IMG/VR virus record: IMGVR_UViG_3300021560_000017
Strand: one strand, 5' to 3'
Origin: an uncultured virus (IMG/VR IMGVR_UViG_3300021560_000017)
Taxonomy: Duplodnaviria; Heunggongvirae; Uroviricota; Caudoviricetes
DNA: 64,000 nt
Positions within the stretch are counted from its first letter, which is position 1. The number at the start of each line of letters is the position of its first letter. This document shows positions 6,837 to 64,000 of this stretch, piece after piece. The notes beneath the pieces are model-generated. The model had not been told where the DNA came from, ran no database searches, and worked only from the letters and a program-made list of their open reading frames with translations. A program made the translations under genes and the position numbers.

Positions 6837-6843
6837 GAGACAC

Positions 6844-15187: not shown

Positions 15188-16224
15188 AAATCGCGATTAG
15201 TTCAGGACACGGCCAGAAAATTCAGGGCGCAAGCGCTATCATTAATGAGGTCACCGAAGCTCGCAGGGTGGTGAGCGCGGTGACCAAGGATCTGCGCGAG
15301 CGGAAGGCGACTGTGGTTGAATTCCACGACAACACTTCCACTACGCAGGCGACGAACATCAACACCATTGTGGCGTGGCACAACGCGCAGACCCGCGATC
15401 TTGATGTCTCGATCCATTTCAATCACTCAGGCGGCGGCACTGTTGATCGTGCGATTGGGACTGAATGCCTCTTTGCCACTCAGCAGGCGCTCGCTGCTCG
15501 CGTGTCCAAAGCCATAGCTCAAAGCGCAGGTTTGTTAGATCGAGGGGCCAAAAAGAGAACAGATCTCGCTTTCCTTTCGCGCACAACCAAGCCAGCCATA
15601 CTGGTCGAGGTCTGCTTCGTGAATTCACGCGAGGACGTTCGCCTGTATCAGGCTTACTTCAATAACATCTGCACGGCCATTGGCGGCGCGATCATGGGAG
15701 CATCCACGCCGAGCGTGCCGCGCCCACCAGAGGGCGGTGCTGCCACTGAGGGAGGTGCCAATCTGGAACACATGACCAAGATCGGGAGCGTGGATATCCA
15801 GCGGGCATACAACGGAGGTTACATCCGATTCGTTTCCATCCTCGATGTCTGTAACGATGGCGTCGGCCCGAAGCGCCCAGAAGATCCGCATCAGCAGGCG
15901 CAAACCACCTATCGTCCGTTCCTCAACGCCGACCTTGACAAGTACATCGTGATCCCGAATAAAGTCAGGCTGGCCGTGAAACCAACCGTCATCGGATGCA
16001 TGGGGCGGATTACCCATCTGCCTACAAGGCAATGGAGCTGGGCGGTAACAGGCACCACGGGGCCAGACAATAAGACGGGGGAGGCGTCCCACATTCTCGC
16101 CAAGCTCGTCTTTCCCAATGCGCGTCCTGATTTTGGCGACAAGAAGGCGGATTATTTTTACGAATTTTGGCCCGGCATCCCCGCCGTCGTTGACGGCAAG
16201 CAATACCAGCTGGTGCCAGCTTAG
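15184..16224 (+). CDS. endolysin: N-acetylmuramoyl-L-alanine amidase (Amidase_3) plus C-terminal GH75-like domain
   Basis: ISSGHG...E...SIHFN...PAILVEVCFV Zn-amidase motifs; C-terminal DVCNDG..DP..Q..T..LNA...YIVIP...GEAS. Confidence 0.85.
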   Translation: MKIAISSGHGQKIQGASAIINEVTEARRVVSAVTKDLRERKATVVEFHDNTSTTQATNINTIVAWHNAQTRDLDVSIHFNHSGGGTVDRAIGTECLFATQQALAARVSKAIAQSAGLLDRGAKKRTDLAFLSRTTKPAILVEVCFVNSREDVRLYQAYFNNICTAIGGAIMGASTPSVPRPPEGGAATEGGANLEHMTKIGSVDIQRAYNGGYIRFVSILDVCNDGVGPKRPEDPHQQAQTTYRPFLNADLDKYIVIPNKVRLAVKPTVIGCMGRITHLPTRQWSWAVTGTTGPDNKTGEASHILAKLVFPNARPDFGDKKADYFYEFWPGIPAVVDGKQYQLVPA

Positions 16225-31840: not shown

Positions 31841-32749
31841 CTAATTTTCTGGATATTCCAAAACCATCCCGTAATTGTTGACGCCTTGTGGGATGACGAC
31901 GCCTTCCTTGAGTTTCAGTTTGTTGTTCTTTCTGAACGCGCTGTAGTCAACGTGATGGTGCCAGCGGTTGAAGCGCCAGACGACCTTCGCCACGTCTGGA
32001 TGCATGGTCGCTAGCATCTTCGATTTCTCCAGAGTCCCTTCCTTCTCGTAAAACTCGGCGGTGTTGCCGCCGCGCACCTTGCGGGTAGTCGCCTTGTCGG
32101 CGAGGAACGCCTGAAAGTTGATCGTGCAGTAGCCGTCTTTCAGCGCGCGCAGCGAGAGATCCGTGTCTTCATTGTAGCGGCCGCGCCAGCGAAACGGCAG
32201 ATCGTTGTCGATGAGCAGGCAGCTGTAGATCCGCGTGTTGAGAATGTAGGGCGGCCACGATTCCTTGCGTTGACAGAACTTCACGTAGTTGAAGCCAGCG
32301 ATGCCGATGTTCTCGTAGCGATCCACGAAGTCCTCGGCCGCCGCGAAAATGGCACCTGTCTCGCTGACGGCGTTCAGGTTGTAGCCAGCGCGGACGAAGT
32401 AATAAATGTTGTCGTCCATGACCCAGTGGCGTTTCGGCCGCAGCGCGCCCTTCCAAGCGTTGGCGGCGAGGTGCCATGCGTAGTTGCGCGCTGGCCCCGG
32501 GCCCAGCGACTTGAGGTCTCCCAGATCATCGCACGTCTCGTAAGCGTCCTTGTAACGCTCTGGCAGGGTCACCAGCTCGACATTGATGTTCCTCGGATAT
32601 TCGCCCGCCATCGCGGCTTTGTAACGGTCGTACTCGGTATCCTCCACGATCACGGTGTAGGGAACGTCCATCTTGTTCAGAGCGCGCATGGTATGGCGCT
32701 GGGCCCAACGTCCCTTCGAGACAATGAAGATCGGATATCGCGGCTGCAT
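31841..32749 (-). CDS. GT-A glycosyltransferase, TAGT/GREB1-like (phage DNA-modification type)
   Basis: YPIFIVSKGR...GPARN...HWVMDDNI...NTRIYSCLLI...WRGRYNEDTDLSLR...GGNT. Confidence 0.8.
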   Translation of the reverse strand: MQPRYPIFIVSKGRWAQRHTMRALNKMDVPYTVIVEDTEYDRYKAAMAGEYPRNINVELVTLPERYKDAYETCDDLGDLKSLGPGPARNYAWHLAANAWKGALRPKRHWVMDDNIYYFVRAGYNLNAVSETGAIFAAAEDFVDRYENIGIAGFNYVKFCQRKESWPPYILNTRIYSCLLIDNDLPFRWRGRYNEDTDLSLRALKDGYCTINFQAFLADKATTRKVRGGNTAEFYEKEGTLEKSKMLATMHPDVAKVVWRFNRWHHHVDYSAFRKNNKLKLKEGVVIPQGVNNYGMVLEYPEN

Positions 32750-48957: not shown

Positions 48958-51813
48958 TTGCGCGTCTACGATATCTTTGCCGAAGCGTCGGAGTACCTCG
49001 GCACCAACGACCAGACGCATGTCTTCAGGACGTGCACGCGGGCGACTGAATATCTGGCGGCCAAAGGCGACTGGGACGTTTTAAAGGGCTACGTCGATCT
49101 TCCAGTGCAGCACCATAATCTGGTGGTTCTGCCGCGACAGGTTGAGACGCCGCTCAAATGGACGATTGACGGTGTCCCAGCATTTTCGCGTGACAGGCTT
49201 TACGAGTTCACGCTGAACGGATTTGGGAGTAACGGCGGCGGACAGGATCGCACGGAGACCTCATGGGAAGATCGCGGGTTCGTTCCGTTCATGGTGCTGC
49301 CGTCGGCAAACGGCTTCGGATTTTTCAAGGTGACCGTGAGCTACAGTCCGCGCAACGCTGGGCGGAAAGTTTATATCGCGGGCAAAGTCGCAGCTTTCGG
49401 CGGCACAGAGGTAACAGAGACGCTCACGATCAGCGCGAACCAGTGGGTCACCTCGACCTACGAGTATTCAGAAGTCACCGAGATAAACAAGGATGTTACT
49501 CACGACTACGTAGGCATCTACATTCACGAGACGCCGCCGCAGCAGCTTCCGCCTTTCGGGCCAACAGATATGACTCCGCCGTCGGATTCACCCGACGCGT
49601 TGCACATGCCGCTGATGGCACCCAACTCTGGCAGTTACCGTTACCCGCTCCGAGTGATTATCGAAACGGCCGACCGAATCGACGGGCTCACTTTAATGTA
49701 CACGCTCGACGGCACCGATCCGACGGTGACCAACGGTATTCCGATTGGCGGTTGGGCTGGCGAAGTCGTTGTTACCCAGTCCCCGCAGGTAGTCAAAGCG
49801 TGCGAAGTTTTGAACGGCGTCGCGGGGCCGATCAAGGCAAACACTTACACGGTGACGGGTGGTGGCATCCTTAACCTGCCTATCATCAGGCCCGACTCAG
49901 GTCGTTACCCGTTGCCGTTGCTTGTGGCGATAGACGCCGTCGATCCCAACACGGGGATCACGCTGATGTACACGACTGACGGGTCAGATCCTTCGCTAAC
50001 TAACGGCATACCAGTCGCTGGCTGGCACGCCGAACTGACGATCAGCGCGTATCCAGCGGTAGTTAAAGCGTGCGAGATCGAGCGGAACAATCTGGCTGGG
50101 CCGATTGCAGGCGTAGCCTACGGACTCAACCCGCCGATCATCCAGCCGCCTTCGGGCTCGTACCAGTTTCCGCTGACGGCGAATATCTCGGCGCAGGATC
50201 AGTTGCCGCCGACCAACGTGGACGTTCCAGCTCCTGTTATCGGTCTGGTCTACACGATTGACGGGACTGACCCAAGTGCGACGAACGGGTTGCCAGTGCC
50301 TTCGGATGGGAACGTGATTATGACCACGGCTCCAGTTGTGCTCAAGGCGTGCCAGCTTCTTAGCGGTGTGGCGGGGCCGATTGCGCGCGCGGACTACTCG
50401 GCGGGGGTGCAACCGCCGCCCGGGCCCGATCCGACGCCCCCGCAACCCGTGCCGCCGACACCTCCGCAGTGGACTCTGCTCGCGATTTACTGGCCCTTGG
50501 AAACAAACCCAAAATACCGAATGGTTCGCATCAGCCAGATCGGGGTCAGGGCGCGGTTCCTGTTCCGCAGGAAGGTATTCAAGATCGATTCGATGGACGA
50601 TTTCATCCCGATCCAGTCGCAGCTGGGGTTCCTGACGATGGTGCAGGCGATTCAGGCGCTGCGCCGCAAGGATCTGGAGACAGCGAAAGCGCTGGCGGAC
50701 GCGGCCGTTGAGATCACCACTGACGCGCAGCGGGCGACAACTGGATTCATCGAGCTGGCGACCAACACGGAGGTTCAGGAAGCGCGCAATTACCAGATCT
50801 TCAACCGCGACTCGGTCATCGTGATGGACATCTTTGACGACATCGCAAAGATCATGGGCAACGTCGGCGAGAACGTGATCTTCGATACCACCACGACGGC
50901 GCTGGAGATCCTCTGTAACAAGGGACATTACGACGGGCTCACGGGCTACGTCGATATCACGACTGACGGCTGGCGTTACGTGACGTTGCCGCGTTTTGTC
51001 GATCAACCAGTGGCAATCGCGGTGAACGGGCGGCCAGCGTTCATGCGGAATAAGTGGAGCGAGTTCCACCTCAACGGCCCGGGCTCCGACGAATACGGCG
51101 GCCAGCACATGGGCGGCGCTCAATTTGGCAGCTGGTACGGTCACAGCGGGAGCGGCCGCTGGGGACAGATCCACGCATGGGACAGCGTCGGCGTTGTCTG
51201 CACAATCGCTCCGCTCGCGGCCGTGTCGCAGTTGGTCGCGATCCCAGACACCATTAACGATAACGGCAAAACGCTGCGGATCTACGGTTACGACGAGACT
51301 GGCAAACGGATCTTCGACTCACAGGGCGACGGCTACACGGTAGTGTGCAACAAGAACAAGCTCGTCCCGAACATCAACACCGATCAGAAGATCGCGCGCA
51401 TCGAGCGCATCACGCGGCAGTCCAGCAACGGATTCGTTAGGCTGTACGCCTTTGACGCCGCGCAGCAGACAACTTCGGTGCTTCTCGGTTATTATTATCC
51501 AGACGAGACCGAGCCGACTTATTTCAGGATCAAACTGCCAATCGACGCGCGCTGGATTCGGCTGCGCTATCGCAAACGCACCTACAAAGTGACCAGCATC
51601 TGGCAGCCGCTGCACCTGTTCTCGCGCACGGCAATTATCACGATGGTGCGGGCGCTGAAGCTGCTCGATACAGATCCCGCAGCTGCGGAGCAGATGGAGC
51701 AGAAGGCGGTGAAGTATCTGGATGACGATCAGAAGGCGCGCAACCCGGGCGAATCCTTCCAGCTGCAGTTCAACGAGGATTGCGGATGGAATTCCAACTT
51801 TATCCTTTCGTGA
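48958..51813 (+). CDS. head-tail adaptor-like protein, internally duplicated, with three Fn3-associated (CHB_HEX_C-like) repeats inserted
   Basis: two homologous halves; three PxSGxY..PL...YTxDGxDP...NG repeats; immediately before the nozzle. Confidence 0.65.
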   Translation: MRVYDIFAEASEYLGTNDQTHVFRTCTRATEYLAAKGDWDVLKGYVDLPVQHHNLVVLPRQVETPLKWTIDGVPAFSRDRLYEFTLNGFGSNGGGQDRTETSWEDRGFVPFMVLPSANGFGFFKVTVSYSPRNAGRKVYIAGKVAAFGGTEVTETLTISANQWVTSTYEYSEVTEINKDVTHDYVGIYIHETPPQQLPPFGPTDMTPPSDSPDALHMPLMAPNSGSYRYPLRVIIETADRIDGLTLMYTLDGTDPTVTNGIPIGGWAGEVVVTQSPQVVKACEVLNGVAGPIKANTYTVTGGGILNLPIIRPDSGRYPLPLLVAIDAVDPNTGITLMYTTDGSDPSLTNGIPVAGWHAELTISAYPAVVKACEIERNNLAGPIAGVAYGLNPPIIQPPSGSYQFPLTANISAQDQLPPTNVDVPAPVIGLVYTIDGTDPSATNGLPVPSDGNVIMTTAPVVLKACQLLSGVAGPIARADYSAGVQPPPGPDPTPPQPVPPTPPQWTLLAIYWPLETNPKYRMVRISQIGVRARFLFRRKVFKIDSMDDFIPIQSQLGFLTMVQAIQALRRKDLETAKALADAAVEITTDAQRATTGFIELATNTEVQEARNYQIFNRDSVIVMDIFDDIAKIMGNVGENVIFDTTTTALEILCNKGHYDGLTGYVDITTDGWRYVTLPRFVDQPVAIAVNGRPAFMRNKWSEFHLNGPGSDEYGGQHMGGAQFGSWYGHSGSGRWGQIHAWDSVGVVCTIAPLAAVSQLVAIPDTINDNGKTLRIYGYDETGKRIFDSQGDGYTVVCNKNKLVPNINTDQKIARIERITRQSSNGFVRLYAFDAAQQTTSVLLGYYYPDETEPTYFRIKLPIDARWIRLRYRKRTYKVTSIWQPLHLFSRTAIITMVRALKLLDTDPAAAEQMEQKAVKYLDDDQKARNPGESFQLQFNEDCGWNSNFILS

Positions 51814-51816
51814 ACC

Positions 51817-53802
51817 ATGCCACAGACTCTGACTCCGCCAGTCGAAGACGGCCCGTGGGCAAAGGGCGTTGACTCATATCTCGAACCGACGCAAGTCCAG
51901 AAGAGTTTCTACCGCACGGGCATCAATATAAGTAATAGGGGGGGGATTGTCCGCACGCGCCCGGGCTTCAGCATCATTCGCGTCACAGCAAACGGCGGAC
52001 AAACACTGATCGGCCAGCCGCGCGGGCTCACGGTGTTCACGGACGGCGATAACAACACGTTTCTGGTGATCGCGATTGGCCCAAGTATTTACTACCTGAA
52101 AGCTCCATTCACGGGCGACTGGACGAGGATAAGCAATCTCAGTTTCACGGGACAAGGGCCAGTATGTTTTGTCCGTTGCGTGCAGAGCGTGACCGAAGCC
52201 GACGACGGCACGCTGACTGACATCGATCCCATCCCGATGATCATTATTCAGGATGGCGTGTCGCGGGCAGCGTACTGGGACGGCAAAAATTCAAGGCACC
52301 TCGATCCAGCCAAGAAAGATCCGTACAAAGGGCCGAGCGAAACACCGATTGGTCTCTGGGGCGAATGGAGCGGCAACCGTTACTGGGTGGCCAACGGATC
52401 AAGGATAAGAGCCTCGAATCTGCTCAACCCGTTAAAATTCACCGAGGAAGATCTGCTGGAGGAAGGCGGGTTCCTCCAGTTCCCGAACACGATCACTGGA
52501 GTCAGTAACACCGCCGATTTCCGCGCGATGCTGGTGTTCACGGATCTTACCACTTCGACGCTGCAGACATCGATCACAGACAGGACGCAGTGGGCGACCA
52601 CAGCTGGATTTCAGGTGGTGGTCTTTTACGGAATCGGCTGCGTCGGCGGCAATGCCATCGCCACGCAATGGGGGCTCAAATGGTGGTACAGCCACGACGG
52701 GCTGATGAGCTTGGACGAAGGCTTGCGCGCCTATCAGAGTTCGAAGGTCACTTACAGGGATCGCGAGATGGCGGCCAGCAAAGAGAACATTGCCAATGAT
52801 TTCAAAGACAACATTGCGATGGGCGCTGACGAGAACCTTCTCTTCGTCTCCGTGCCGAGCGGCGACCGATACAACGCGCACACATGGGTGATGGATGAAG
52901 CGCCACTGGATACGCTGACCTACTGGGGCTACTTCGGCCTGCCGTCATGGAGCGGGATCTGGGAAGGCATTCGGCCAGTGGCATGGTTTACAGCGCCAGT
53001 TGACGGCGTGCACAGGACTTTTTGCCTGAGTCAGGATTATCCGTTTGGCAGCGATCCGAACGTCACTCCGATGCAGAACAACGTCTGGGAATGCGTTGTC
53101 GGCGCGCGGATGGACAGGACGATTGACAGTCAAAATCGGATCATAACAAAGCCGATTCTTTGCCAGCTGGAGACCAAGCTGATCGGATACGACGGCAACT
53201 ACAAATTCTTTCGCTTCGCCGAGATCTACATCGATAACATCGAAGGCGAGGTCTTTTTGGAGGTGTTTTATGCGCCAAGGCGCGGCGGTTACAAACGGGT
53301 TCTGCACAAGCAAATTGTGTCGAGCGACTGGGATCTCGTGAATCTTGAGACCTATCACATGCCGTGGCTATGCCAGAGCGCGAACGATTTCCTCTTTTAC
53401 GCAACGCGGCCACAGGCGCGGGTGGTGCGGACAATTTCCGAGGCGAAAAGCTACACGACTCCGAACAGTGGCGACGACGTTTACCAGAGCGTTCAGACGA
53501 GCGCCAATGTGCCATTCCCACGCCAGAAGGACTACGCGTTCTCGCTGTTACTGCAATGGACTGGAAGAATGTCGGTGTCCAGTGTCCGCATGTATTTCGA
53601 CGCGGAAGAGCAGGAAGTCGAAGGCATTGCCGAGGTAGACGAGACGACTGACAGGTTTCTGATTATGAACGGGGCGTGCATCGTCGCTGCTCCGCCAAAG
53701 CATGACTACCTCATCGATCCAAACTCTTTTGACTTCAATAGCAACACGATGACTGGCGCATTCCCGATCTGGATTGATCCAATCTATCAAACGATGAAAT
53801 AG
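51817..53802 (+). CDS. tail nozzle / stabilization protein (P22 gp10 / T7 gp12-like beta-propeller)
   Basis: 661 aa, beta-rich; N...RGG.VRTRPGF N-terminal motif; GIGCVG; synteny. Confidence 0.7.
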   Translation: MPQTLTPPVEDGPWAKGVDSYLEPTQVQKSFYRTGINISNRGGIVRTRPGFSIIRVTANGGQTLIGQPRGLTVFTDGDNNTFLVIAIGPSIYYLKAPFTGDWTRISNLSFTGQGPVCFVRCVQSVTEADDGTLTDIDPIPMIIIQDGVSRAAYWDGKNSRHLDPAKKDPYKGPSETPIGLWGEWSGNRYWVANGSRIRASNLLNPLKFTEEDLLEEGGFLQFPNTITGVSNTADFRAMLVFTDLTTSTLQTSITDRTQWATTAGFQVVVFYGIGCVGGNAIATQWGLKWWYSHDGLMSLDEGLRAYQSSKVTYRDREMAASKENIANDFKDNIAMGADENLLFVSVPSGDRYNAHTWVMDEAPLDTLTYWGYFGLPSWSGIWEGIRPVAWFTAPVDGVHRTFCLSQDYPFGSDPNVTPMQNNVWECVVGARMDRTIDSQNRIITKPILCQLETKLIGYDGNYKFFRFAEIYIDNIEGEVFLEVFYAPRRGGYKRVLHKQIVSSDWDLVNLETYHMPWLCQSANDFLFYATRPQARVVRTISEAKSYTTPNSGDDVYQSVQTSANVPFPRQKDYAFSLLLQWTGRMSVSSVRMYFDAEEQEVEGIAEVDETTDRFLIMNGACIVAAPPKHDYLIDPNSFDFNSNTMTGAFPIWIDPIYQTMK

Positions 53803-53804
53803 CC

Positions 53805-55004
53805 ATGTCCACGCCTCTACAGATAACACTCATCGCGGGCACACTTCCGCCGAGCTGTGTCTACAATCCCCAGACCTTCCTGAATGCCATCGCCGCGCAA
53901 ATAAGGGGGACAATCCCAGCTGGCAACGTGATATGGGGACAACTGGGCGGCAGTGAGCCGACTGCGCCGCTGCAGGGCAACGGGGCCACGTCGGGGCTTT
54001 GGTTTGGGAACCCAGATCCCACCAACGACAGCATCTGGAACCAGTGGAACGCTGACATCCCAGAGAATAGTAACACTGGCAAATACATGCCGATCCCGCT
54101 GGTCTGCGGTCAGTATGTGTCTGGAAACATCGTCGTGACGGAGTTCCTGTGCGGCGCGACTGACGGTTCTTTCAAGATCATCACCCCAGATAAAAGCGGG
54201 ACGATGGCGCTACTGGACGATCTCGTTCAGGCGCTGGGCAACCAGTCATACAGCGACACCACTACCTCTGTATCATGGAAGAATCGCCAGCCCATTTACA
54301 TCACTCTCTATGGCAACACTGTGATCGCCGCGCCGACTGACGCGACGGACGGCCAGATCATGGATTTCTACGTCGAGAACAACAGCGGCACGACAGATTG
54401 GACGATAGATTTCCCGACCGTGTTCTGGCCGCAGGGAACGGCGCAACCGCAGCCGCCATTCACGGTTCCTCATGTCGCTGGGAATCGTGTCATCTCGCAC
54501 TTTCGAATCTTTTTCGCTGGCAACCTTCTTCTGGGTCAAGTGATCGCTCACGGAATCACTACCACCCCAGCTGCTGGCTCGCCACCGCAGGCATATCAAA
54601 TAGCCACTACCGTGCAGGCAGGGAACAAGCCTAACAGGAGGAACATCGTTGGCTCGAAGACCTTCATCTGGGTGCAAACCGACTTCGATCTGATCGGGAA
54701 CGATTCACAAGGCACGCCGCCGCCGCCGAGGCTTCTCGTTTCAAACTGGCATCTGGTAAAGAACGGCATCGGCGCGACGATCAGTAGGGTACTGACCACA
54801 GGCAATAACATCTACGTCTACTCAGCGGACAATTTCATCGATACGGACGTAGTGACGCTGAAATACACTGGAAACGACATCAAGTCGATAGCCAACGTCG
54901 CGATGGATGCTTGGCCTGCTCCAGTAACCGTCCCGCTCGTCAACGTTGCCGCGCCGAGTGCGCAGGGCGGCGGCGGAGGTCTGTTCAATCATTATCTGGA
55001 CTAA
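53805..55004 (+). CDS. tail appendage protein, paralog A (C-terminal SwmB-like Ig domain)
   Basis: homologous to the next gene; VTLKYTGNDIKSIANVAM. Confidence 0.65.
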   Translation: MSTPLQITLIAGTLPPSCVYNPQTFLNAIAAQIRGTIPAGNVIWGQLGGSEPTAPLQGNGATSGLWFGNPDPTNDSIWNQWNADIPENSNTGKYMPIPLVCGQYVSGNIVVTEFLCGATDGSFKIITPDKSGTMALLDDLVQALGNQSYSDTTTSVSWKNRQPIYITLYGNTVIAAPTDATDGQIMDFYVENNSGTTDWTIDFPTVFWPQGTAQPQPPFTVPHVAGNRVISHFRIFFAGNLLLGQVIAHGITTTPAAGSPPQAYQIATTVQAGNKPNRRNIVGSKTFIWVQTDFDLIGNDSQGTPPPPRLLVSNWHLVKNGIGATISRVLTTGNNIYVYSADNFIDTDVVTLKYTGNDIKSIANVAMDAWPAPVTVPLVNVAAPSAQGGGGGLFNHYLD

Positions 55005-55006
55005 AC

Positions 55007-56161
55007 ATGGCAGTACCTGAAACAAACGCGCCTTTCCCGATCATCCTGATCCATGCCACGCTTCCAGCTGGAGCGACCTACAATCCGCAAAGCTACCTGA
55101 ACGCGGTTGTCGAGCGGCTATTGATGAACACCAACGGAGGATTGGCATTCGGCCAGTTGGGTGGCGGCAAGCCTCAAGGCGTAATGCCAGAGGATGGATT
55201 GTGGTTTGGCGATCCCTACGGCAACACTGGTGTATTCCAGAAATGGAACTCTGACCTCGGCCAATACATCCCCGCGCTGATGGCTTGCGGTCAGTACGTC
55301 GATGACAACGTGCGGGAAAGCTCGTTCATATGCGGGGCGACAAAGAACCAAAAGATCATAACGCCAGACAAGGCGGGCACGATGATGCTTTTGGATGACG
55401 ATCCGCAAAACCTCGGCCTGCAGACATTCGGCGGCAGCACATCAATCCATCCCGACTGGACTACCCATCAGGCAGTCTATTTCACATTGGATGCGACTGC
55501 GCCAGCGGACACTTCTTTCACGATCAATGCTGATCCCAATGCCAAGGACGGGCAGACGCTGGATTTCTTCATCGAGACTCCAGCGATGGTTCCATTTGGG
55601 ACAGGCCACGCGTTTCATCTCACTTGGCCGTACGTCCTATGGAATAACGGCTTGGCAGCTGGAGCTACAGATCCGAGTCCAATAGTAGACGTCAACACCC
55701 GCGTGCTCGACCACTTCCAGCTTCATCAGGTTGGCAACATCCTCTGGGGCGAGGTCATCGGCAAGAACTACCAGATAGCTACAGGCACCCATCTGGTCAT
55801 CGTGACGTTCTTGGAAGCCAATGCGCTGGTCGGCTCGAACAGGATCGACGTTAACATGAGCGGGAACTTGACGGGCGGCACTTTGGATAAGACCAAGTGG
55901 ATCGTGATGAAAAACGGGAACGCTCAGAATGTGCTCGATGCCACGGCAAACGGCGATTTCGTTTTCATCCATATCGACAACGCTTTAAAGCGCGGGAATC
56001 AGGTCACCGTTCAGTACACTGGCAACGATTTGAAATCGATCTCCAACATTGCGGTTGCGCCATTTGGGCCTGTGGATGTGACGGTTGAAACCACCAATGG
56101 AGGAGTCCACGGCCCGGGCACCAACGGAGGGCCGACACACATTCCGATAAACCCACCATGA
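55007..56161 (+). CDS. tail appendage protein, paralog B
   Basis: YNPQ, GLWFG, CGQYV, IITPDK, YTGND shared with paralog A. Confidence 0.65.
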   Translation: MAVPETNAPFPIILIHATLPAGATYNPQSYLNAVVERLLMNTNGGLAFGQLGGGKPQGVMPEDGLWFGDPYGNTGVFQKWNSDLGQYIPALMACGQYVDDNVRESSFICGATKNQKIITPDKAGTMMLLDDDPQNLGLQTFGGSTSIHPDWTTHQAVYFTLDATAPADTSFTINADPNAKDGQTLDFFIETPAMVPFGTGHAFHLTWPYVLWNNGLAAGATDPSPIVDVNTRVLDHFQLHQVGNILWGEVIGKNYQIATGTHLVIVTFLEANALVGSNRIDVNMSGNLTGGTLDKTKWIVMKNGNAQNVLDATANGDFVFIHIDNALKRGNQVTVQYTGNDLKSISNIAVAPFGPVDVTVETTNGGVHGPGTNGGPTHIPINPP

Positions 56162-56553
56162 GAGAGCACTTGAAATTTGGGCTGATAAAGACCGAGGAAG
56201 AGTTCAAAGAGCTGCAGCGCTTTGCTCAATCGTTCGATCACGAGGTTGGGCGCGACGCGATCCCGCCAATCTTCACTATCGAGCGCGGCGAGCACATGGT
56301 CGGTTACTACAACGTGATCCAGCATCCGATTGTGTGCCCAGCGATGAATCCTGCCGTCACCACTCCACGCGAATTTTTTGAAACGCTGATGTTCCTGAAG
56401 AACCATTACTGCCTCAACTCGATCAACGGGAAGTTCCCGCATGGCATGGGGCTGATGGCGGTGCAGACGAAGCTGCCACAGCATTTAAAAAATGCGTTTG
56501 AACGGGCAGGGTTCAGGAACACGAAAAAAGAAATCTGGCAGGCGCTACCTTAA
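56158..56553 (+). CDS. GNAT-fold-like protein (position of T7 gp13)
   Basis: FTIERGEHMVGY...AFERAGF; weak pattern plus synteny. Confidence 0.4.
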   Translation: MREHLKFGLIKTEEEFKELQRFAQSFDHEVGRDAIPPIFTIERGEHMVGYYNVIQHPIVCPAMNPAVTTPREFFETLMFLKNHYCLNSINGKFPHGMGLMAVQTKLPQHLKNAFERAGFRNTKKEIWQALP

Positions 56554-56557
56554 AATT

Positions 56558-57184
56558 ATGGGCAGTCTCTTTGGCGGCGGTGGCGGGAGCGTTCAATCTC
56601 CCAAGGCACCCAAGCCGATTCAGCTCGATGTAAACCAGCTGGAGCAGAATGCAGTCGCTGCAGATCAGGCTGGCTACGCTCAGGCCGACCAATACATGCA
56701 GCAGTATTACCCTGCCCTGTGGGACGCACAGCAGTCGATGATAAAGCAGGCTTACGAGGGGATCACTGGGCCTACTCCGCCCGCGCTGGAGAACACGTTT
56801 ATGAACGCCGCCAACATGCAGTCGATGTCGGCGCTGGGCGGCGGCGATCAGAGTTTCGGGCTCGGTAAAGGCAGTCTGGCGCGCAACGCTGCCGCAGCTA
56901 ACGTCGCGTCGAACGAGCAGGGCTATCGGGACTATAGCAGAGGGGTATTCGAGCAGCTCAACGCGCAGTTTGCGCCGCGCACGTTTGGGCTCACGCCAGA
57001 GGATGCTGCGAACGTCTTCACATTCAACAACAACCAGTACAATAACTACTTGGAGCAGCAATACGCGCTGCGGACTAACACCTACTTCCAGAACCAAGGA
57101 CTGGCGGCAGGACAGAGCGCGGCAGGCACAGGAATGCTGACGAGTCTCGCTGGATCGGTGATATCAGGGCTCATTATTTACTAA
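56558..57184 (+). CDS. pilot/ejection protein 1 (MGSLFGGGGG)
   Basis: Gly-rich N-terminus, Q/A/N-rich helices, hydrophobic C-terminus. Confidence 0.6.
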   Translation: MGSLFGGGGGSVQSPKAPKPIQLDVNQLEQNAVAADQAGYAQADQYMQQYYPALWDAQQSMIKQAYEGITGPTPPALENTFMNAANMQSMSALGGGDQSFGLGKGSLARNAAAANVASNEQGYRDYSRGVFEQLNAQFAPRTFGLTPEDAANVFTFNNNQYNNYLEQQYALRTNTYFQNQGLAAGQSAAGTGMLTSLAGSVISGLIIY

Positions 57185-57185
57185 A

Positions 57186-57962
57186 ATGATGACAAAACTG
57201 GAACAAACGACTGCAAGGCTGAGCGAATGGTTCGAGAGATTCGACCATCCAGTGGTGATGTGCTCCTTCGGTAAGGACTCGATGGTCATGCTGTTCATCA
57301 TTTTGAGAGTGATGGAGAAAAAACTGCCAGTGATATACCATTCCAACCCGTGGCAGCCGTGGAAGAACGACTGGGCGTGGAAGATGATCAAGGAATGGCA
57401 GCTTGAGGTCTACGATCCGCCACCGTACGCAAGCGGGATCAAGGTCAAAGAGGATCGGATCGAGATAGTCCACTGCTACCAGATCCGTGGGCACCCGCTT
57501 TATCTGCCTGTTAACATTTTGTCGCCTAACGGGCACTCGATGTGCGGGCTGAAGATGCTGGAGCGGCCGAAAGGAGTGATGGATTACCCGTGGAACCTGA
57601 TCCTGATCGGCCACAAATCGTGTGACGTCGATCCGTTTGACGGTCATATACCGCTCAAGATGGATCTGATCGAGCTGGAAGGCGCGCCGACCGTCGCTTT
57701 CCCGTTGCGTGAGTGGTCAGACGAAGAGCTGTGGGACTACATCGAAGCTCATCGGATACCGATCCAGTACGGGACGCGCTACATCGACCGCAAGGAGATC
57801 GAATACAAGGAATTTAACCCTGACTACATCGAATCATGCACGGCATGCATCGATCCGCGCAACCCAGCGAAGGTTCATTGTCCGTTGGTGAACCGCGAGA
57901 TTGATAATGTGTCTGGAAGGGTGCCAAGATTTGAAGGCAAGCCAAGTTACATAGGAGAATAA
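57186..57962 (+). CDS. PAPS-reductase-family (PP-loop) protein
   Basis: VMCSFGKDSMVM, IGHKSCD, FPLREWSDEELWDYI, C-terminal CTAC. Confidence 0.8.
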   Translation: MMTKLEQTTARLSEWFERFDHPVVMCSFGKDSMVMLFIILRVMEKKLPVIYHSNPWQPWKNDWAWKMIKEWQLEVYDPPPYASGIKVKEDRIEIVHCYQIRGHPLYLPVNILSPNGHSMCGLKMLERPKGVMDYPWNLILIGHKSCDVDPFDGHIPLKMDLIELEGAPTVAFPLREWSDEELWDYIEAHRIPIQYGTRYIDRKEIEYKEFNPDYIESCTACIDPRNPAKVHCPLVNREIDNVSGRVPRFEGKPSYIGE

Positions 57963-57966
57963 CAAG

Positions 57967-58803
57967 ATGGGTTCAATGTTTGGAGGAGGAGGTGGCGGCG
58001 GAAGCCCGCCTAGCCCGCCAAAACTGCGGCAGGTAGACACGAGTGTCGGCGGCCCGCTCTGGACTACGGCAGCCGACTTCGGACAGCAGTGGGCTAATTT
58101 GATGCGTGGCAGTTACGGATTAGGCCAGAGCACTGGGCCCGCGAGCTGGGAGGCGCAATACCTCGGCCCGGGCGCGCTCGCCATGATGGGGCAGGCGCGG
58201 CAGATGACCAACGCGCCCGGGACAATGCCAGAGATCCAAAACATTCTGAACACGGGGTTCGGCAAGCCAGAAACTGTCGGCGGCGTTCCGCAAGCTGGCT
58301 CCAAAGGCCGCGAATGGAACCTCGGAATGAGCCCTTTTGAGGTGTCACAGCAACTGGGCCAGCAATACAAAGCGCCATACGGCCAGCTGGAGCGTGCGCA
58401 GGGACTGGATCTCGCGCTGACAAAGCAATGGCAACCTCCAAATCTCACGTTGAGCGGCGCGGATCTGACGAACGTTGCGATGGGACAGGCGGCCGTGAAC
58501 CAGCAGCTGCAACAGCAAGCGTTGCAAGCCGCGCTGGCTGGTTCAAACGCGGCCGCGTCAGCGCAGGCAGCCGCACAGGCGTCCGAGTTTGGAGCGCTCG
58601 GAAAAGCAGGCTCAGGCGTCATCAACGCGTTCTTTCAAGGCAGCCCAGACCTAACATCAGGCGGCTATTACCAGCCCAGCATGTTTGGCGCTTTATTCGG
58701 CGGCGGCGGGAGCCCAGAGGGAATCGGCGGTGCCTACGACCCGGGCGTCGCCGACGCAGCTGCTGGCGGCGGCGGTAGCTTTCTTGGAACAGGAGGAGGA
58801 TAA
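57967..58803 (+). CDS. pilot/ejection protein 2 (MGSMFGGGGGG)
   Basis: SD AGGAG; N-terminus paralogous to the 56558 gene. Confidence 0.6.
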   Translation: MGSMFGGGGGGGSPPSPPKLRQVDTSVGGPLWTTAADFGQQWANLMRGSYGLGQSTGPASWEAQYLGPGALAMMGQARQMTNAPGTMPEIQNILNTGFGKPETVGGVPQAGSKGREWNLGMSPFEVSQQLGQQYKAPYGQLERAQGLDLALTKQWQPPNLTLSGADLTNVAMGQAAVNQQLQQQALQAALAGSNAAASAQAAAQASEFGALGKAGSGVINAFFQGSPDLTSGGYYQPSMFGALFGGGGSPEGIGGAYDPGVADAAAGGGGSFLGTGGG

Positions 58804-58806
58804 ACT

Positions 58807-59499
58807 ATGCCATTTGATGTGTTACCCAGTCATCACCTGATCATGCCAGCGGTCAGGTTCCCCGAAATTCCTTGGGGCGAATACGCACGGCTTGCATCCG
58901 AAAACGCGTGGAAAAAATACCAAGTCTTAATGAACGGGCTCGACGTCGTTCTGAAGGCGGCCGATCCAATGAACATCGCTGATCGGCGGCTGAAGATGTT
59001 GCAATACCAGTACCAATCGCAGCTGATGCCGATGGAGATCCAGCATTACAGGGAAACAGGATTTCCGATGCCGAAAAACGCGGCAGAAGCGATGTCCCAG
59101 CAGCAGTGGCTGAACAACGAAAGGCAGAGGCAATTCTTCAACGGCTACTCAGGTCGCGGCGGTAGCGCTGGCGATGTTGGGCATTACGCGGCCGATTCAG
59201 GCGACGGAGTGGACATTAAGAACCAGCAGACGGGAGAGGTCAGCAGGGTGGACGGTAACACGATGGTGACAGTCGGCAGGCCAACTGCCGAAGACGTGCA
59301 GGCAGGCCCGACAACGATCCACGGCCAGCCTGTTACCAGAACGGAGGTGGTGCCGACTGACACGGGCGAGTACAGGCAGATCCAGTACGGCCCGGGCTCT
59401 GGCGAAGGCACAGTCAATCCCGTGGACATTGGCGCGCCAGCCGCTGGCAGTTCGATTGTTGGCGGTGGCGATCAGTATGACGACACAGGAGGCCCATAA
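58807..59499 (+). CDS. internal virion protein
   Basis: SD AGGAGG; ejectosome synteny. Confidence 0.5.
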   Translation: MPFDVLPSHHLIMPAVRFPEIPWGEYARLASENAWKKYQVLMNGLDVVLKAADPMNIADRRLKMLQYQYQSQLMPMEIQHYRETGFPMPKNAAEAMSQQQWLNNERQRQFFNGYSGRGGSAGDVGHYAADSGDGVDIKNQQTGEVSRVDGNTMVTVGRPTAEDVQAGPTTIHGQPVTRTEVVPTDTGEYRQIQYGPGSGEGTVNPVDIGAPAAGSSIVGGGDQYDDTGGP

Positions 59500-61380
59500 A
59501 TGAATGGAGACGACGTAGCAGTACAAGAACCGTTGCAGGGGATTCAAGGCAACGTGGATTTGCCAGAACCGCAACCAGAGCAGCGACGTGGGCGCGGTGA
59601 AGGCCCGACGGCCGACATCAACCTTGAGTATTATGGCAGGAATTTCGGTGAAATGAATCACGCCGCGAACAACGGCCCAGACGGATCGCCGCTCGAAGAT
59701 TATCACGTCGCCATCAGCCCAAACGTCGCGAACGATCTCGGTCTGAAGCTCCACGACTGGGTATGGGTGGGGCCGCAGCTGCGCCAGTATGGTGACGTCA
59801 GCGCTATTGCGAACAAACAGGGCGGTTTCGACCGTTACACACACAACACCGTCGAGGTGCGCGATTACGCAGCCGACGGGAAGACGACGCTCCGAAAGGC
59901 GACGCCGAAAGAGGTTGAAGAGTACGCTCCACGAGGCGGAGGCGGCATGGATCTAAGCAGCCGTCCTTCCGCGCAGATGGCGTCGATGATGACTGGCAAA
60001 GCCCCGTCGCAGATCACTGCCGAAGATGTCAACAATTTCATTCAGCCGCAGATCGAGGGAATGAGTCGGGGACTGCTGGCTGGTGACATGACCGCAGCGG
60101 CGCTTCAGGGCGCTCAGGATCAGGGCGATCAGCCGTCGTTCATGCAGCCCGCCGAGGAGCCGGGCGCAATGGACGTGGCATCGAGCGGCATGGGCGGCGG
60201 CATGGATCTCATGGGAACTGGCGCTGGCGGCGGCGACATCATCAGCACCGATAGCGGCGGCCTAGTGCCTAATCCTGCTCACGCACAGCTAACGAACGTC
60301 AATAAAGCAACTGGTGCACGGGACTTCAATGGGGGCGCGCAAGTAGAAGGTGGACTCACTTATCATCCGAACACCGACACACTGGAATGGACAATCGGCG
60401 GCCGCCGTTTCATCAAGACTGGTGAGTACGGGAAAGTAATTAGTGCTCCGTCGGCGAAGATCGTACGTAACCCAGACACGGGCGAATACTATAATATGGC
60501 TACGGGCGTGCCCGTGAAGGTGCAGCTGCCCGGGCAGTCGCCAGCCTACAACGAGAACCTCACTCCAGAGGCGAACCTGAACCAGCTCTCACCGCAGGAT
60601 CGGATGACAGTGCAGATGTTTTCCACGTACCAACTGCCGCTGACCACGCGCTACGGCCGCATGAATCCTGAGTTTGCAAGATTGCGGCCCTACATCCAAG
60701 CTGCTAACCCGCACATCGATCCGCGCACCTACCAGATCCAGCAGCAGACCATGATGCAGATGGCCAGCGGCCAGAACGGTTCCGTCGGCCAGCGGCTCAA
60801 CTCGTGGAATCAATCGCTCATTCACGCGGGTGCACTCTGGCGTTTGTCGCAGGCGCTTCCAGAAGGGCCACTGCCAAAAGCGAACAGCGTCTGGAACTGG
60901 TTAAAGACCAACACTGGCTCTGAGCAGCAGACCAACTGGGAAACGGGCGCGCAACTGTTTGCTACAGAAGTCTCGCGCGCGTTCCAAGGTGGTGTTCCTG
61001 CGCAATCGGAGATCCAGCACATCATGGATCAACTGAAGGCGTCTGGTTCAAAGGCGCAGCTGCAGGGTAACATCAAGGATGTCATGGCGAAGTTCATCGA
61101 GGGCGGACTGGAAAGCATCAACTACGGCTACCAGCGCAACATGGGCAGCCGTTACGAGAATCTGATCTCGCCGCAAGCCGCAGCATCACTCAGCGAATTC
61201 GGCTACAAGAAGTTTGCCGACAGGGATCTGGCTCCAATCATGGGGAAAGCCGCGCCGAACCCAGCAGAGCAGCGTGCCGTTGATACCATCAACGCTCACA
61301 ACCAGAAATACCCGAAAGATCAGATTGAAATGACCCCAGAGAACATTAAGAAGTTGATGTTGATGCAACAAAGGCAATGA
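59500..61380 (+). CDS. internal virion/ejection protein, possible N-terminal 3D-like domain
   Basis: 626 aa; helical C-terminal half typical of DNA-transfer proteins. Confidence 0.55.
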   Translation: MNGDDVAVQEPLQGIQGNVDLPEPQPEQRRGRGEGPTADINLEYYGRNFGEMNHAANNGPDGSPLEDYHVAISPNVANDLGLKLHDWVWVGPQLRQYGDVSAIANKQGGFDRYTHNTVEVRDYAADGKTTLRKATPKEVEEYAPRGGGGMDLSSRPSAQMASMMTGKAPSQITAEDVNNFIQPQIEGMSRGLLAGDMTAAALQGAQDQGDQPSFMQPAEEPGAMDVASSGMGGGMDLMGTGAGGGDIISTDSGGLVPNPAHAQLTNVNKATGARDFNGGAQVEGGLTYHPNTDTLEWTIGGRRFIKTGEYGKVISAPSAKIVRNPDTGEYYNMATGVPVKVQLPGQSPAYNENLTPEANLNQLSPQDRMTVQMFSTYQLPLTTRYGRMNPEFARLRPYIQAANPHIDPRTYQIQQQTMMQMASGQNGSVGQRLNSWNQSLIHAGALWRLSQALPEGPLPKANSVWNWLKTNTGSEQQTNWETGAQLFATEVSRAFQGGVPAQSEIQHIMDQLKASGSKAQLQGNIKDVMAKFIEGGLESINYGYQRNMGSRYENLISPQAAASLSEFGYKKFADRDLAPIMGKAAPNPAEQRAVDTINAHNQKYPKDQIEMTPENIKKLMLMQQRQ

Positions 61381-61381
61381 G

Positions 61382-64000
61382 ATGCCTGAGCCTGATCTAT
61401 CGACGCTTTCGCGGGTGCCAACTGCTGGGGCGACTCCGCCAGTAGCGCCCCCTCCGACTCCGCCACCCGATCAGACAGCGCAGATTCCAGAAGACGATCT
61501 GAGTAACCTGACGCGGGAGCCAGACGTCAGTGGCCTAACGAGAGCGCCGAAGTCCGAAGAGCAGCTCAGGGACGACGCCTCGCATTTTCTCGGTCTGGTG
61601 CAGGAAGGCAGGCTGAACCTCGGCGACAATCTGCCCCAAGCAGGCCAGAATTTTAACGAAACGTGGAATCAAGTTAAACATTACTGGGGCACTCCCACCA
61701 GTTACGAATCGATGCTCGACGCTGAGCGGCAACTCGTAGGGCCAAAGGAAGGCAGGCATCGAGACTGGTTGGATCGCCAGTGGGAAGACGTCATATCACA
61801 GCTTCCGCAGATCGCTGGTCAGAAGATGCACGATCTTTATGACTGGACGATCAATCAGGAATACGAGAAGGCCAAGGCTGGTGGCTGGACGCCTTATCTG
61901 GAACAGAAGTATCAGGAAGCAAAGCAGGCATTGACGGCCCCCGCCGCGCAGCCGGGCGAACGGTTCCAGCCGGGCGCGCCCCTCGTCACTGGAGCGGCAA
62001 AATTCATCGGCGGCACGGCGGCGAACGCGATGGCTGCGTTCAACAACATGGTGGAGACACCGCCCGGGATGTGGGGCCGACCAGACTCTCCAGAGGAATG
62101 GAAAAAATACGAGGAGAATCAGGCCGAGAACAACGCGACGGCCGACTGGTTCAATGACAGGATCGGCAGGGCATCCTACGCTGCGGCGAAATCCACAGGC
62201 CAAGATCCAGACTCCCTTTGGTACAAGACATGGGAGCAGATCCCAGCGTTCACGGTTCCAGTTCCAATTGAGTTCGCTAAATCTGAGAGGGTGGCTGCCG
62301 CCGTCTCGCGCATGGCGCAGAAAGGCATTCCCGTAGCAAAGGTCGCCGCCGCGTATTCACCTGAGTTAATCGCTTCTGGTAGTCTGGTGCACACGGCAGC
62401 CACTGCACTGGGAGTTCCAACCAGCTTGCTCGGCTGGGGCGAAAGACTCGCTGGTGGTACTACGGTTTTTAAAACTTCGACCAGCATGACCGACACGCTG
62501 ATCAAGAAGCTCACTGGGCTCGACCGACCGACATTAGCCAAGAACATGCTCTACATGCTGCAGGCGCCGGGCGGTGTGCGCTCTGGCGAATGGATGCTGG
62601 AGCAAACCTCCAAAGAGATCGACGGGCTGAAGGCCGAGGCCCAGCACATGATGAGCAAGCTCGATGACAACGATCTTGCGGATATCGCCATGAAAGGGCC
62701 AGACGGCAACCCGCTTTATTCAGCCAACGATCTCAAGGGTGACGCCAAAGCAGTCAAGCTGAAGCTAGAAAAGATCGATGATCTGACTGACAAACTGGAC
62801 GAGATCAATAACCAGCTCAATTACCACAATCACAGGAACGAGGTTGCTTCTTTCATGGGTAACATGATTGGCAACACCACGACTGCCGCTCTCGTCGGAG
62901 GTGCATTTGGAGCGGTTAATGCGCCGACTGGTCAGGCTGGTCAGGGATTCTTCGAAGGTGCGGTTAATACCGCAGCAATCGGCGCGGCGTTCTCGCCTTT
63001 CGCTTCTGTCGCTGGAATGCACGATCTGCGGCTCAAATACGGCAAGCGCATGCTGATCCAGATGGGCTCACGCGGCTTCGATATGTCGTCACTGGCTGGA
63101 GTCCATCCTTACTGGGCAGATCAAGTCTTGATGGCAAACGGCTACGCTCACTCAATGGATGGCAGAATCAGGGTGATCGATCCAGCAACGCAGCCCAACG
63201 TGATTCCGACGTCCCCGATGATGACGCCAGAAGGAGTCAGGCAGATGCCAGCAAATGGTTTCATCTCCACCGACGGCAAAACGCTTTATCTTAACAAGAA
63301 CGCTCTCGGTCAGGGCACGGCTTACCACGAGCTGTCGCACCTGTTACAGCGTTACACTGGCCAGATGCTCAGGATGCATGCGCCAGACATCATGTTGCCA
63401 TTCGAGGAAGCGTACGCCGAGGCGTCAGGCGATCCGAAGTTCAGCATCCATGAAGATCCTGAAACGGTGCAGAAGGAGATGGACGCTGAAATCGGCAGGA
63501 TCGTGATGCAGCACACGCCAATTGAAACGTTTTTCGGCGGCGAACATCTGGGGGATGTGATGTCCCGAAAACTGAAGAGCGGCGATATGTTTGGCAAGAT
63601 CGGCCGCGCCGTCGTCAACTACCTCAATCCCGACAAGATCAAGTATGACGAGAAGCTGAATGCTCCTTACACACGGGAGCAGGTTGATCAGATGAGGCAG
63701 GCGTTGTTTGAGATGGGTAAGCGAGCGCAGGCGCGACAATACCTTGGGCCACCGATAGAGTATCCAGAGGGCCGAGGCCCGTGGCCGCCAGAACGTGAGG
63801 AACCCACCCCTGCAGGGCCGCCAGTCACAGGCGGCAAACCTGAAGTTCCTTCACCAGAAGTTCCTGAAGCGCCGCAGCACCCTGACTACCAAGCTGAATA
63901 CGACAAGGGCGCAGCGGCGGAACAGGCGCGGCAAGCGAATCCCAATACCAAGAAGGCACAGGCGGCGATAGATCGCGCTGGGATCGAGGCGGCCGCCAAG
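61382..64000 (+). CDS. large ejection/polyvalent protein, 3'-truncated (absent from the ORF track, consistent with no stop in the window)
   Basis: ATG at 61382; in-frame HExxH (AYHELSH) at 63326-63340. Confidence 0.7.
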   Translation, partial: MPEPDLSTLSRVPTAGATPPVAPPPTPPPDQTAQIPEDDLSNLTREPDVSGLTRAPKSEEQLRDDASHFLGLVQEGRLNLGDNLPQAGQNFNETWNQVKHYWGTPTSYESMLDAERQLVGPKEGRHRDWLDRQWEDVISQLPQIAGQKMHDLYDWTINQEYEKAKAGGWTPYLEQKYQEAKQALTAPAAQPGERFQPGAPLVTGAAKFIGGTAANAMAAFNNMVETPPGMWGRPDSPEEWKKYEENQAENNATADWFNDRIGRASYAAAKSTGQDPDSLWYKTWEQIPAFTVPVPIEFAKSERVAAAVSRMAQKGIPVAKVAAAYSPELIASGSLVHTAATALGVPTSLLGWGERLAGGTTVFKTSTSMTDTLIKKLTGLDRPTLAKNMLYMLQAPGGVRSGEWMLEQTSKEIDGLKAEAQHMMSKLDDNDLADIAMKGPDGNPLYSANDLKGDAKAVKLKLEKIDDLTDKLDEINNQLNYHNHRNEVASFMGNMIGNTTTAALVGGAFGAVNAPTGQAGQGFFEGAVNTAAIGAAFSPFASVAGMHDLRLKYGKRMLIQMGSRGFDMSSLAGVHPYWADQVLMANGYAHSMDGRIRVIDPATQPNVIPTSPMMTPEGVRQMPANGFISTDGKTLYLNKNALGQGTAYHELSHLLQRYTGQMLRMHAPDIMLPFEEAYAEASGDPKFSIHEDPETVQKEMDAEIGRIVMQHTPIETFFGGEHLGDVMSRKLKSGDMFGKIGRAVVNYLNPDKIKYDEKLNAPYTREQVDQMRQALFEMGKRAQARQYLGPPIEYPEGRGPWPPEREEPTPAGPPVTGGKPEVPSPEVPEAPQHPDYQAEYDKGAAAEQARQANPNTKKAQAAIDRAGIEAAAK

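Follow-up and report, generated by a model that had tools for sequence, protein, structure and literature searches.

What are two enzyme-like genes doing among the virion protein genes of a tailed phage? The question is raised by a stretch of 64,000 nucleotides (nt) from an uncultured Caudoviricetes virus (IMG/VR record IMGVR_UViG_3300021560_000017), referred to here in its entirety as the window, in which four short genes follow one another almost without gaps. We call these genes A to D:

56158-56553, plus strand: A, 131 amino acids (aa); its ATG overlaps the stop codon of the upstream gene (ATGA)
56558-57184, plus strand: B, 208 aa, Gly/Gln rich; internal ATG at 56558, 4 nt past the A stop
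57186-57962, plus strand: C, 258 aa, PAPS_reduct/PP-loop protein; 1 nt past the B stop
57967-58803, plus strand: D, 278 aa, Gly rich; 4 nt past the C stop, with AGGAG upstream

We rechecked the open reading frames (ORFs) and their junctions, and the order, the shared plus strand, and the gaps (A/B, 4 nt; B/C, 1 nt; C/D, 4 nt) are as the initial annotation of this locus described them. The four genes belong to a conserved, virus-specific late-operon cassette of podovirus-like phages. We tentatively favor, at somewhat less than even confidence, a reading in which A and C would be nonpackaged maturation enzymes that act inside the infected cell on internal virion proteins that have yet to be packaged.

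Relatives of C are predominantly viral and occur in one kind of genomic setting. A large protein collection contained 179 C homologues at E ≤ 1e-3, and the nearest Atlas clusters of C were 91 to 96% viral. Scanning viral contigs with C alone returned nothing, and scanning with an alignment of C homologues (A1) returned 80 loci, in all of which C was located among structural genes. Of 102 loci, 84 had a called C; the other 18 were dropped from the lineage set, and dereplication at 80% identity of C yielded 26 lineages. In 26 of 26, C lies 3′ of a protein family with a distinctive C-terminal tail and 5′ of large virion proteins. The order that is kept runs from a protein of ∼600 to 730 aa, often through one of ∼220 aa and a small one of 110 to 147 aa, to a Gly-rich protein, C, one or more proteins of 300 to 700 aa, and a giant of 1,100 to 2,400 aa. 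The first of these proteins has weak PHROG matches to “internal virion protein” and “head closure,” and the giant of locus L068 matches the PHROG “virion structural protein” (E = 9.1e-13). BLAST-detectable homologues of A, B, D, and the three genes that follow D in the window (E, F, and G, below) were found together only in the closest locus, in which C is 66% identical. The neighborhood search that the initial annotation had proposed thus found C homologues not in random contexts but in one fixed slot among virion genes.

The most constant element of this slot is the protein encoded directly 5′ of C, whose C terminus is in every relative a hydrophobic tail rich in Gly and Ala. A hidden Markov model (HMM) of the tail gave 89 domain matches among 1,220 ORFs, 81 of which were the ORF ending just 5′ of C; the others were like proteins in loci without a called C, plus gp70 of phage Bcep22 (E = 3.3e-5). 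In the window this position is held by B, which has a Gly/Ala-rich hydrophobic C-terminal tail at about 57107-57181. We assign B to the tail-bearing family because of its BLAST identity to the proteins directly 5′ of C in loci L001 (57%) and L002 (33%), and we consider it a candidate internal or ejection virion protein. This family is the one invariant neighbor of C, and on the maturation reading C would be tied to the tail-bearing protein.

Some relatives carry a further protein-modifying enzyme next to C. In 16 of 76 loci, the gene adjoining C encodes a SET-domain protein methyltransferase (four of the five scanned pass the Pfam cutoff). No such gene is present in the window; examples beside the PP-loop gene, among others, are as follows:

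L008:5601-6011, SET-domain gene
L019:8807-9232, SET-domain gene
L063:3686-4114, SET-domain gene
L065:6617-7000, SET-domain gene

C belongs to the Pfam family PAPS_reduct (PF01507; 31.3 bits against a cutoff of 22.5), named for 3′-phosphoadenosine-5′-phosphosulfate (PAPS) reductases. A profile built from 30 C homologues matched CysD in the PDB (1zun; E = 1e-13), as well as CysH and flavin adenine dinucleotide (FAD) synthase. The AlphaFold (AF2) model of C, with a predicted local distance difference test (pLDDT) score of 93.9, gave its fold matches by VIA in the order CysD (Z = 15.2), FAD synthase (14.1), adenosine 5′-phosphosulfate (APS) reductase (13.4), and TtuA (12.4). Against 1zun_A it aligned as a Rossmann-like PP-loop fold over 159 residues with a root mean square deviation of 2.9 (VIA), and Foldseek gave an E value of 2.6e-6. 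The motif scan and the family alignment marked the following sites:

57264-57281, plus strand: PP-loop SFGKDS of C, residues 27 to 32
57543-57545, plus strand: C120 of C in MCGLK (CGL motif; motif region 57540-57554), invariant in the family
57612-57632, plus strand: HKSCDVD of C, family pattern HKSxDxD
57837-57848, plus strand: CxxC (CTAC) of C, residues 218 to 221, invariant in the family
57879-57881, plus strand: C232 of C in HCP, invariant in the family

In the alignment, SFGKDS, HKSxDxD, C120, C218xxC221, and C232-P are invariant or nearly so. Among 120 homologues of C, the PP-loop was found in 119 and CxxC(8-14)CP in all 120, with a CC pair in 10 and ECG[LI]H in 2. The catalytic cysteine tail of CysH is a C-terminal ECG(L/I)H. 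In the two relatives with ECGLH, the motif is the internal C120 site in the middle of the protein and not a C-terminal tail. The CGL motif at C120 resembles the CysH tail motif, and on sequence grounds a relocated nucleophile is possible. In C itself, neither a CC pair nor ECG[LI]H occurs anywhere in the sequence; the initial annotation was therefore right that C has SFGKDS and a C-terminal CxxC and lacks both hallmarks of CysH.

C was also compared with characterized enzymes. CysD and the eukaryotic-type FAD synthase/FMN adenylyltransferases provide the best fold and profile matches and share the canonical SxGKDS PP-loop, but C differs from them in an inserted β-hairpin region at about residues 75 to 135 and in its Cys-rich C-terminal part. 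It also falls far below the NCBIfam equivalog cutoffs for CysD (31.3 bits versus 195; 27.8 versus 413), and no Pfam family of the CysN partner type was found among the ORFs scanned in the window, which covers all but about 10 kb of the roughly 75-kb contig. With the CysH-type PAPS/APS reductases, C shares the Pfam family, the fold, and a CxxC pair like that of the Fe-S APS reductases, but it lacks the C-terminal ECG(L/I)H and the CC pair, and its scores against the CysH equivalogs are low (23.3 bits versus 154 for NF002537; 17.3 versus 254.2 for TIGR02057). The [4Fe-4S] PP-loop thiolases TtuA and NcsA, together with DndC, resemble C in the PP-loop fold (the TtuA match above), and the Cys set of C is compatible with a cluster; in contrast to those systems, no sulfur-carrier, desulfurase, or Dnd partners were seen by C. 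C had no match to DndC (TIGR03183) at E ≤ 0.01, and one relative scored 15.3 bits against a cutoff of 290. C showed no domain for nucleic acid binding, and no fused long forms of C were found, the latter being weak evidence.

Judged by sequence and fold, C is a genuine PP-loop ATP pyrophosphatase, though a divergent one, and not an orthologue of CysH or CysD. From general knowledge of the superfamily, its intact CysD-type PP-loop points to α-β cleavage of ATP (adenylyl transfer) and not to PAPS reduction. The four Cys residues would be compatible with a metal or Fe-S site, or with three ligands plus a catalytic Cys120.

Two further observations concern the surroundings of C homologues. In L002, the gene 3′ of the PP-loop enzyme (L002:8789-9820) has a subthreshold match to Sulfotransfer_4 (E = 1.1e-3; 19.2 versus 22.8 bits) and contains the stretch GLPRCR, which recalls a PAPS-binding loop; sequences in the PDB gave no backing for this lead, and no relative was found in the other loci examined. 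Bacterial contigs contributed eight loci with C, mostly on contigs of metagenome-assembled genomes (MAGs) of Verrucomicrobiota, Blastocatellia, and Pyrinomonadaceae, which is no more than a hint of the hosts. A bacterial sequence, L084 (a Pyrinomonadaceae MAG contig, 231 kb; acidobacterial), holds a distant C homologue (26% identity) in an apparent prophage structural region, a possible host clue.

Proteins that begin with Met-Gly (MG) are enriched around C. B starts with MGSLFGGGGGS (56558-56590) and D with MGSMFGGGGGGGS (57967-58005; in short form MGSMFGGGGGGG). When the window is translated in all six frames, “FGGGG” occurs only at the B start, at the D start, and in a repeat inside D. That repeat, SMFGALFGGGGSP at 58678-58716, is an internal copy of the D motif, so the motif is not purely N-terminal. 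Beyond ∼22 N-terminal residues, B and D have no sequence in common, and D is 46% identical by BLAST to the gene in the same slot of L001. The short extent of this shared sequence and the internal copy in D do not favor the idea that both enzymes act on the free N-terminal Gly. The broader expectation of MG N termini in this module was borne out. With gene starts taken crudely as the first start codon after a stop, and across lineages that are related and not fully independent, MG-starting ORFs numbered 21 among the 112 ORFs lying −1.5 to +3 kb from C versus 7 of 235 elsewhere (Fisher p = 1.6e-6).

An MG protein stands beside C in 14 of the 26 lineages, and the other 12 have none. A small upstream protein is encoded in 17 of the 26 (the A family in 4, a family that we call A3 in 9, and other kinds in 4), and MG proteins were found in 14 of these 17 lineages versus 0 of the 9 that lack the small protein (one-sided Fisher p = 7e-5). 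It is thus the small upstream gene, and not C, that the MG signature tracks. Up to five proteins starting with MGG surround C in some of the loci found through A. As a separate observation, three loci (L093:8032-9225, L100:8008-10064, and L107:8020-9589) have three or four small genes 3′ of the PP-loop gene that all start with MGG and then diverge.

The same gene order can be recognized in cultured phages. When C and four of its relatives were used as tblastn queries, a set of 50,697 phage records returned only Bacillus phage PAPS reductases (21 to 26% identity), one Dulem virus match (E = 2), or nothing. In Burkholderia phage JC1, an acetyltransferase (gp63; 146 aa; CDD RimL), a virion-associated protein (gp64; 332 aa), and a PAPS reductase (gp65; 240 aa) are followed by gp66, then the virion-associated gp67 and gp68, then DarB-like gp69 (4,515 aa) (PMC9144972). 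Table 6 of that article, on virion mass spectrometry, lists gp64, gp67, gp68, and gp69; gp63 and gp65 are not among the entries of that table (PMC9144972). The records of Bcep22 and Ralstonia phage Gervaise read acyl-CoA N-acyltransferase, virion protein, PAPS reductase, virion protein, and DarB-like giant. Gene order and sizes in these Bcep22-like (Lessievirus) and Gervaise cassettes match A-B-C-D-E-F-G of the window, and the protein 5′ of the PP-loop enzyme (gp70 in Bcep22, gp25 in Gervaise) carries the Gly/Ala-rich tail motif. Gervaise gp25 matches this motif at E = 1e-5, starts with MGGKGGG, and lies directly 3′ of the acyltransferase gene, whose product gp24 matches Pfam Acetyltransf_4 (E = 6.1e-3). 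In Aeromonas phage phiA008, a 146-aa gene is followed by genes for an MGGGGG protein, a tail-motif protein, and the PP-loop enzyme. The Bcep22 cassette also differs from that of the window: C finds nothing in gp73 by tblastn, the cysteines are arranged as CC...CxxC in gp73 and as C120...CxxC...C232 in C, and A is not detectably related to gp69. Members of the gp73 subfamily occur in 43 phage records.

Taken as maturation enzymes, the two proteins would have separate tasks. A, as a minimal GNAT-like (Gcn5-related N-acetyltransferase-like) enzyme, would acylate the Gly exposed after Met removal on B and perhaps on D, with acetylation as the simplest case. C would bind ATP through its intact PP-loop and adenylate some group on its target, which is probably not the N-terminal Gly. 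Gene order, the family and fold of C, the conserved synteny, and the MG enrichment with its tie to the small upstream gene were observed; what A and C catalyze, what they act on, and that they stay out of the virions of this phage is inferred. A more specific version, in which phage-encoded acylation of N-terminal Gly on ejection proteins is combined with a PP-loop adenylyltransferase making a second, ATP-dependent modification of a tail-anchored channel-type protein, strikes us as distinctly doubtful. On that acylation view, the substrates of A would be several “MGG” internal virion proteins, each modified at the Gly left after Met cleavage and possibly lipidated there, in convergence with the entry proteins that are myristoylated in eukaryotic viruses.

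A number of observations weigh against the maturation reading, many of them through A. A search for homologues of A by word index found 2 proteins, and a full HMMER search found 135 representatives, all of about 120 to 135 aa. A has no Pfam, PHROG, or NCBIfam match, and none of 77 aligned A family members matched a GNAT Pfam family at E ≤ 0.01. The acetyl-CoA pyrophosphate-binding motif of GNATs is Q/R-x-x-G-x-G/A, and a scan of A for [QR]xxGx[GA] gave no match. The AF2 model of A (pLDDT, 95.2) retrieved almost exclusively GNAT acetyltransferases as its top Foldseek matches in the PDB, but weakly (best E = 9.3e-3; template modeling [TM] score of about 0.3), and the best VIA match reached a Z of 5.3 with the two halves of A aligned separately to GNAT halves. 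The best BFVD match, a phage acetyltransferase, is also weak (E = 7.6e-3). The ESM Atlas puts A next to viral clusters of equal size, among them one with an Acetyltransf_1 share of 67% (TM score of 0.62 over 120 residues). The initial annotation called A GNAT-like; the weak fold matches agree with this, but the missing Pfam match and acetyl-CoA motif do not, which makes GNAT-like a reasonable but unproven label. The likeness of A to the N-terminal acetyltransferases RimI, RimJ, and RimL and to N-myristoyltransferase lies in the same weak fold resemblance and in presumed substrates that begin with Met-Gly; A differs from them in lacking the Pfam match and the motif. The commoner small upstream family, A3, is moreover unrelated to A: hhalign detected no relation of the A2 or A4 alignments to A3, to the GNAT of L077, or to Bcep22 gp69. 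In searches of the PDB, the A3 profile matched kinases at chance level only. The A4 profile matched an alphavirus capsid protease (E = 0.4 to 1), a candidate that we rejected because the match is not significant and A has no aligned His.

The remaining points of this kind concern the locus and its analogues. The internal copy of the D motif and the crude gene starts and relatedness behind the MG counts belong here, as do the lineages L076, L077, and L080, which encode a small upstream protein and, as called, no MG protein. The tail HMM gave no score with B. In the cultured phages, Bcep22 gp70 starts with a hydrophobic segment and not with MG, and homology to C is weak, the C-family HMM scoring 24 bits with Bcep22 gp73 and 21.5 bits with Gervaise gp26. 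The JC1 mass spectrometry detected only 16 proteins and could have missed low-copy enzymes (PMC9144972). Finally, conserved synteny can reflect coexpression alone.

Five other explanations have to be set against this. The authors of the JC1 study call both enzymes morons (PMC9144972), the CSP3 paper reads its genes in the same way (PMC10269572), and the cysH of pelagiphage HTVC034P has been read as a sulfur-cycling gene (PMC8477408). Applied to the window, this published view would make A and C morons or auxiliary metabolic genes (AMGs), with C in sulfur assimilation as a CysH- or CysD-like enzyme, A a generic acetyltransferase, and their position incidental. CysD is indeed the best structural and sequence match of C. 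We nevertheless judge this view improbable: C scores 17 to 31 bits against NCBIfam cutoffs of 154 to 413 for CysH and CysD, the C-terminal ECG[LI]H is missing, no CysN-type partner is encoded among the window ORFs scanned, and the C family is more than 90% viral. Morons would also be expected to be scattered, whereas C keeps one fixed slot even where its neighbors no longer align. The fixed slot, the viral restriction, the lost CysH/CysD hallmarks, and the neighboring GNAT-like and SET protein-modifying enzymes together argue against simple sulfur-metabolism morons. That A and C (and the SET protein where present) are instead packaged and ejected with the DNA as early effectors of host takeover or counterdefense is unlikely, though less so. 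The two genes lie between genes for internal or ejected proteins, SET enzymes would have host protein targets, and phage capsids do carry enzymes, such as DarB of P1 (cited in PMC9144972). However, the proteins listed for JC1 virions include gp64, gp67, gp68, and gp69 and neither gp63 nor gp65, which, with 16 proteins detected, speaks against packaged effectors and leaves the suggestion that the enzymes are coejected disfavored (PMC9144972). C would in addition need ATP and probably a metal cluster, and it carries no packaging mark.

With regard to a role in DNA modification, the recognizable DNA-modification gene of the window is as follows:

31841-32749, minus strand: TET-associated glycosyltransferase (TAGT) gene (PF20691, E = 1.1e-38; PHROG β-glucosyl-HMC-α-glucosyltransferase, E = 1e-44)

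Judging from this gene, the phage probably hypermodifies cytosine in its own DNA. PAPS_reduct members include DndC and BrxP, and C, possibly with A, might in a similar way modify phage DNA or aid an antirestriction function of the giant. Two faint matches fit this, one to BrxP (E = 2.2e-3) and the other, from a single relative, to DndC (E = 7e-3), as does the DarB-like antirestriction annotation of the downstream giant in the cultured analogues. We regard it as quite unlikely, because these matches are far below any threshold, no partners of the DndA, DndD, or DndE type were seen, and C has no recognizable nucleic-acid-binding domain. The TAGT gene is on the opposite strand at a distance of 25 kb, a placement that does not back a part for the cassette in DNA modification. 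Very unlikely, in our estimation, is the proposal of the initial annotation that B and D are acted on by both enzymes at their free N-terminal Gly, for example with C activating a carboxylate and A transferring it in a lipidation or ligation. The GNAT superfamily includes N-terminal acyltransferases, and the MG enrichment, its link to the small upstream gene (14/17 versus 0/9), and the presence of up to five MGG proteins per module suit such a role for the small protein. They do not suit it for C, which is kept in the 12 of 26 lineages without an MG protein. To our knowledge, PAPS_reduct-clade enzymes of known chemistry adenylate sulfate or phosphate groups and not fatty acids, and the D motif is not confined to the N terminus. 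We give equally little credence to A, and perhaps C, as noncatalytic assembly chaperones that keep hydrophobic Gly-rich internal proteins soluble until packaging. The lack of cofactor motifs in A, the use of at least two unrelated small families (A and A3) in the same slot before MG proteins, and the hydrophobic tails of the partner proteins are in keeping with it, but the near-invariant PP-loop and Cys residues of C argue for catalysis. The small protein is also annotated as GNAT in the analogues, through the Acetyltransf_4 match of Gervaise gp24 and the RimL assignment of JC1 gp63 (PMC9144972).

The genes that flank the cassette in the window are as follows:

55004-56161, plus strand: U1, 385 aa, upstream virion-module gene with its ATG at 55004; its stop overlaps the A start
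58807-59499, plus strand: E, 230 aa, in the same gene string, with weak same-slot homologues in L001 and L002
59500-61380, plus strand: F, 626 aa, candidate internal virion protein, 34% identical to the same-slot L001 gene
61382-64000, plus strand: G, 872 aa or more, continuing past the window end; relatives have giants of 1,100 to 2,400 aa in this slot

U1 is paralogous to the adjoining gene at 53805-55004 (plus strand; 399 aa), and both paralogues match one L001 gene at 5842-6978 by BLAST (the same L001/L002 protein). The L001 counterpart of G has at least 1,499 aa. No Pfam or PHROG family matched U1, and B, D, E, F, and G had no match in Pfam, PHROGs, or NCBIfam. The description of the cassette as lying inside an ejection module thus holds as a virion-gene slot by analogy with relatives, but no named family match in the window genes backs the specific term. 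G contains an HExxH-type HELSH (in AYHELSHLL; 63326-63340, plus strand), possibly a metalloprotease-like site, with no family match.

From 43.8 kb to the window end, every plausible gene of this late region is on the plus strand. Promoter- and terminator-like sites in 51000-64000 showed no excess over shuffled sequence. The window as a whole is a divergent phage sequence that codes for an Amidase_3 endolysin, RecT, a DnaB-type helicase, and tail-fiber and β-helix tail-spike proteins. In the endolysin (15184-16224, plus strand), Amidase_3 is joined to a C-terminal domain that resembles GH75 chitosanase. An ORF of 623 aa at 17506-19377 (plus strand) contains very long runs of poly-Gly, and ARAGORN predicted a tRNA-Ala(cgc) antisense inside it (18455-18544, minus strand) that may be spurious.

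The gene order described here is already annotated in cultured phages and the enzyme superfamilies are known; what is new is that A and C are uncharacterized subfamilies. In the open-access literature searched, we did not find a description of these genes as a virion-protein maturation cassette, of the association of MG proteins with the small gene, or of ejection proteins matured by enzymes after translation. The question can be tested directly, since JC1, Bcep22, and Gervaise are cultured analogues that share the gene order. If A and C do act as maturation enzymes, the “PAPS reductase/cysH” and “acetyltransferase” moron or AMG labels in Burkholderia phages, Ralstonia phages, pelagiphages, and many metagenomic phages would need revision, and the cassette would reveal an enzyme-driven posttranslational maturation of ejection proteins.

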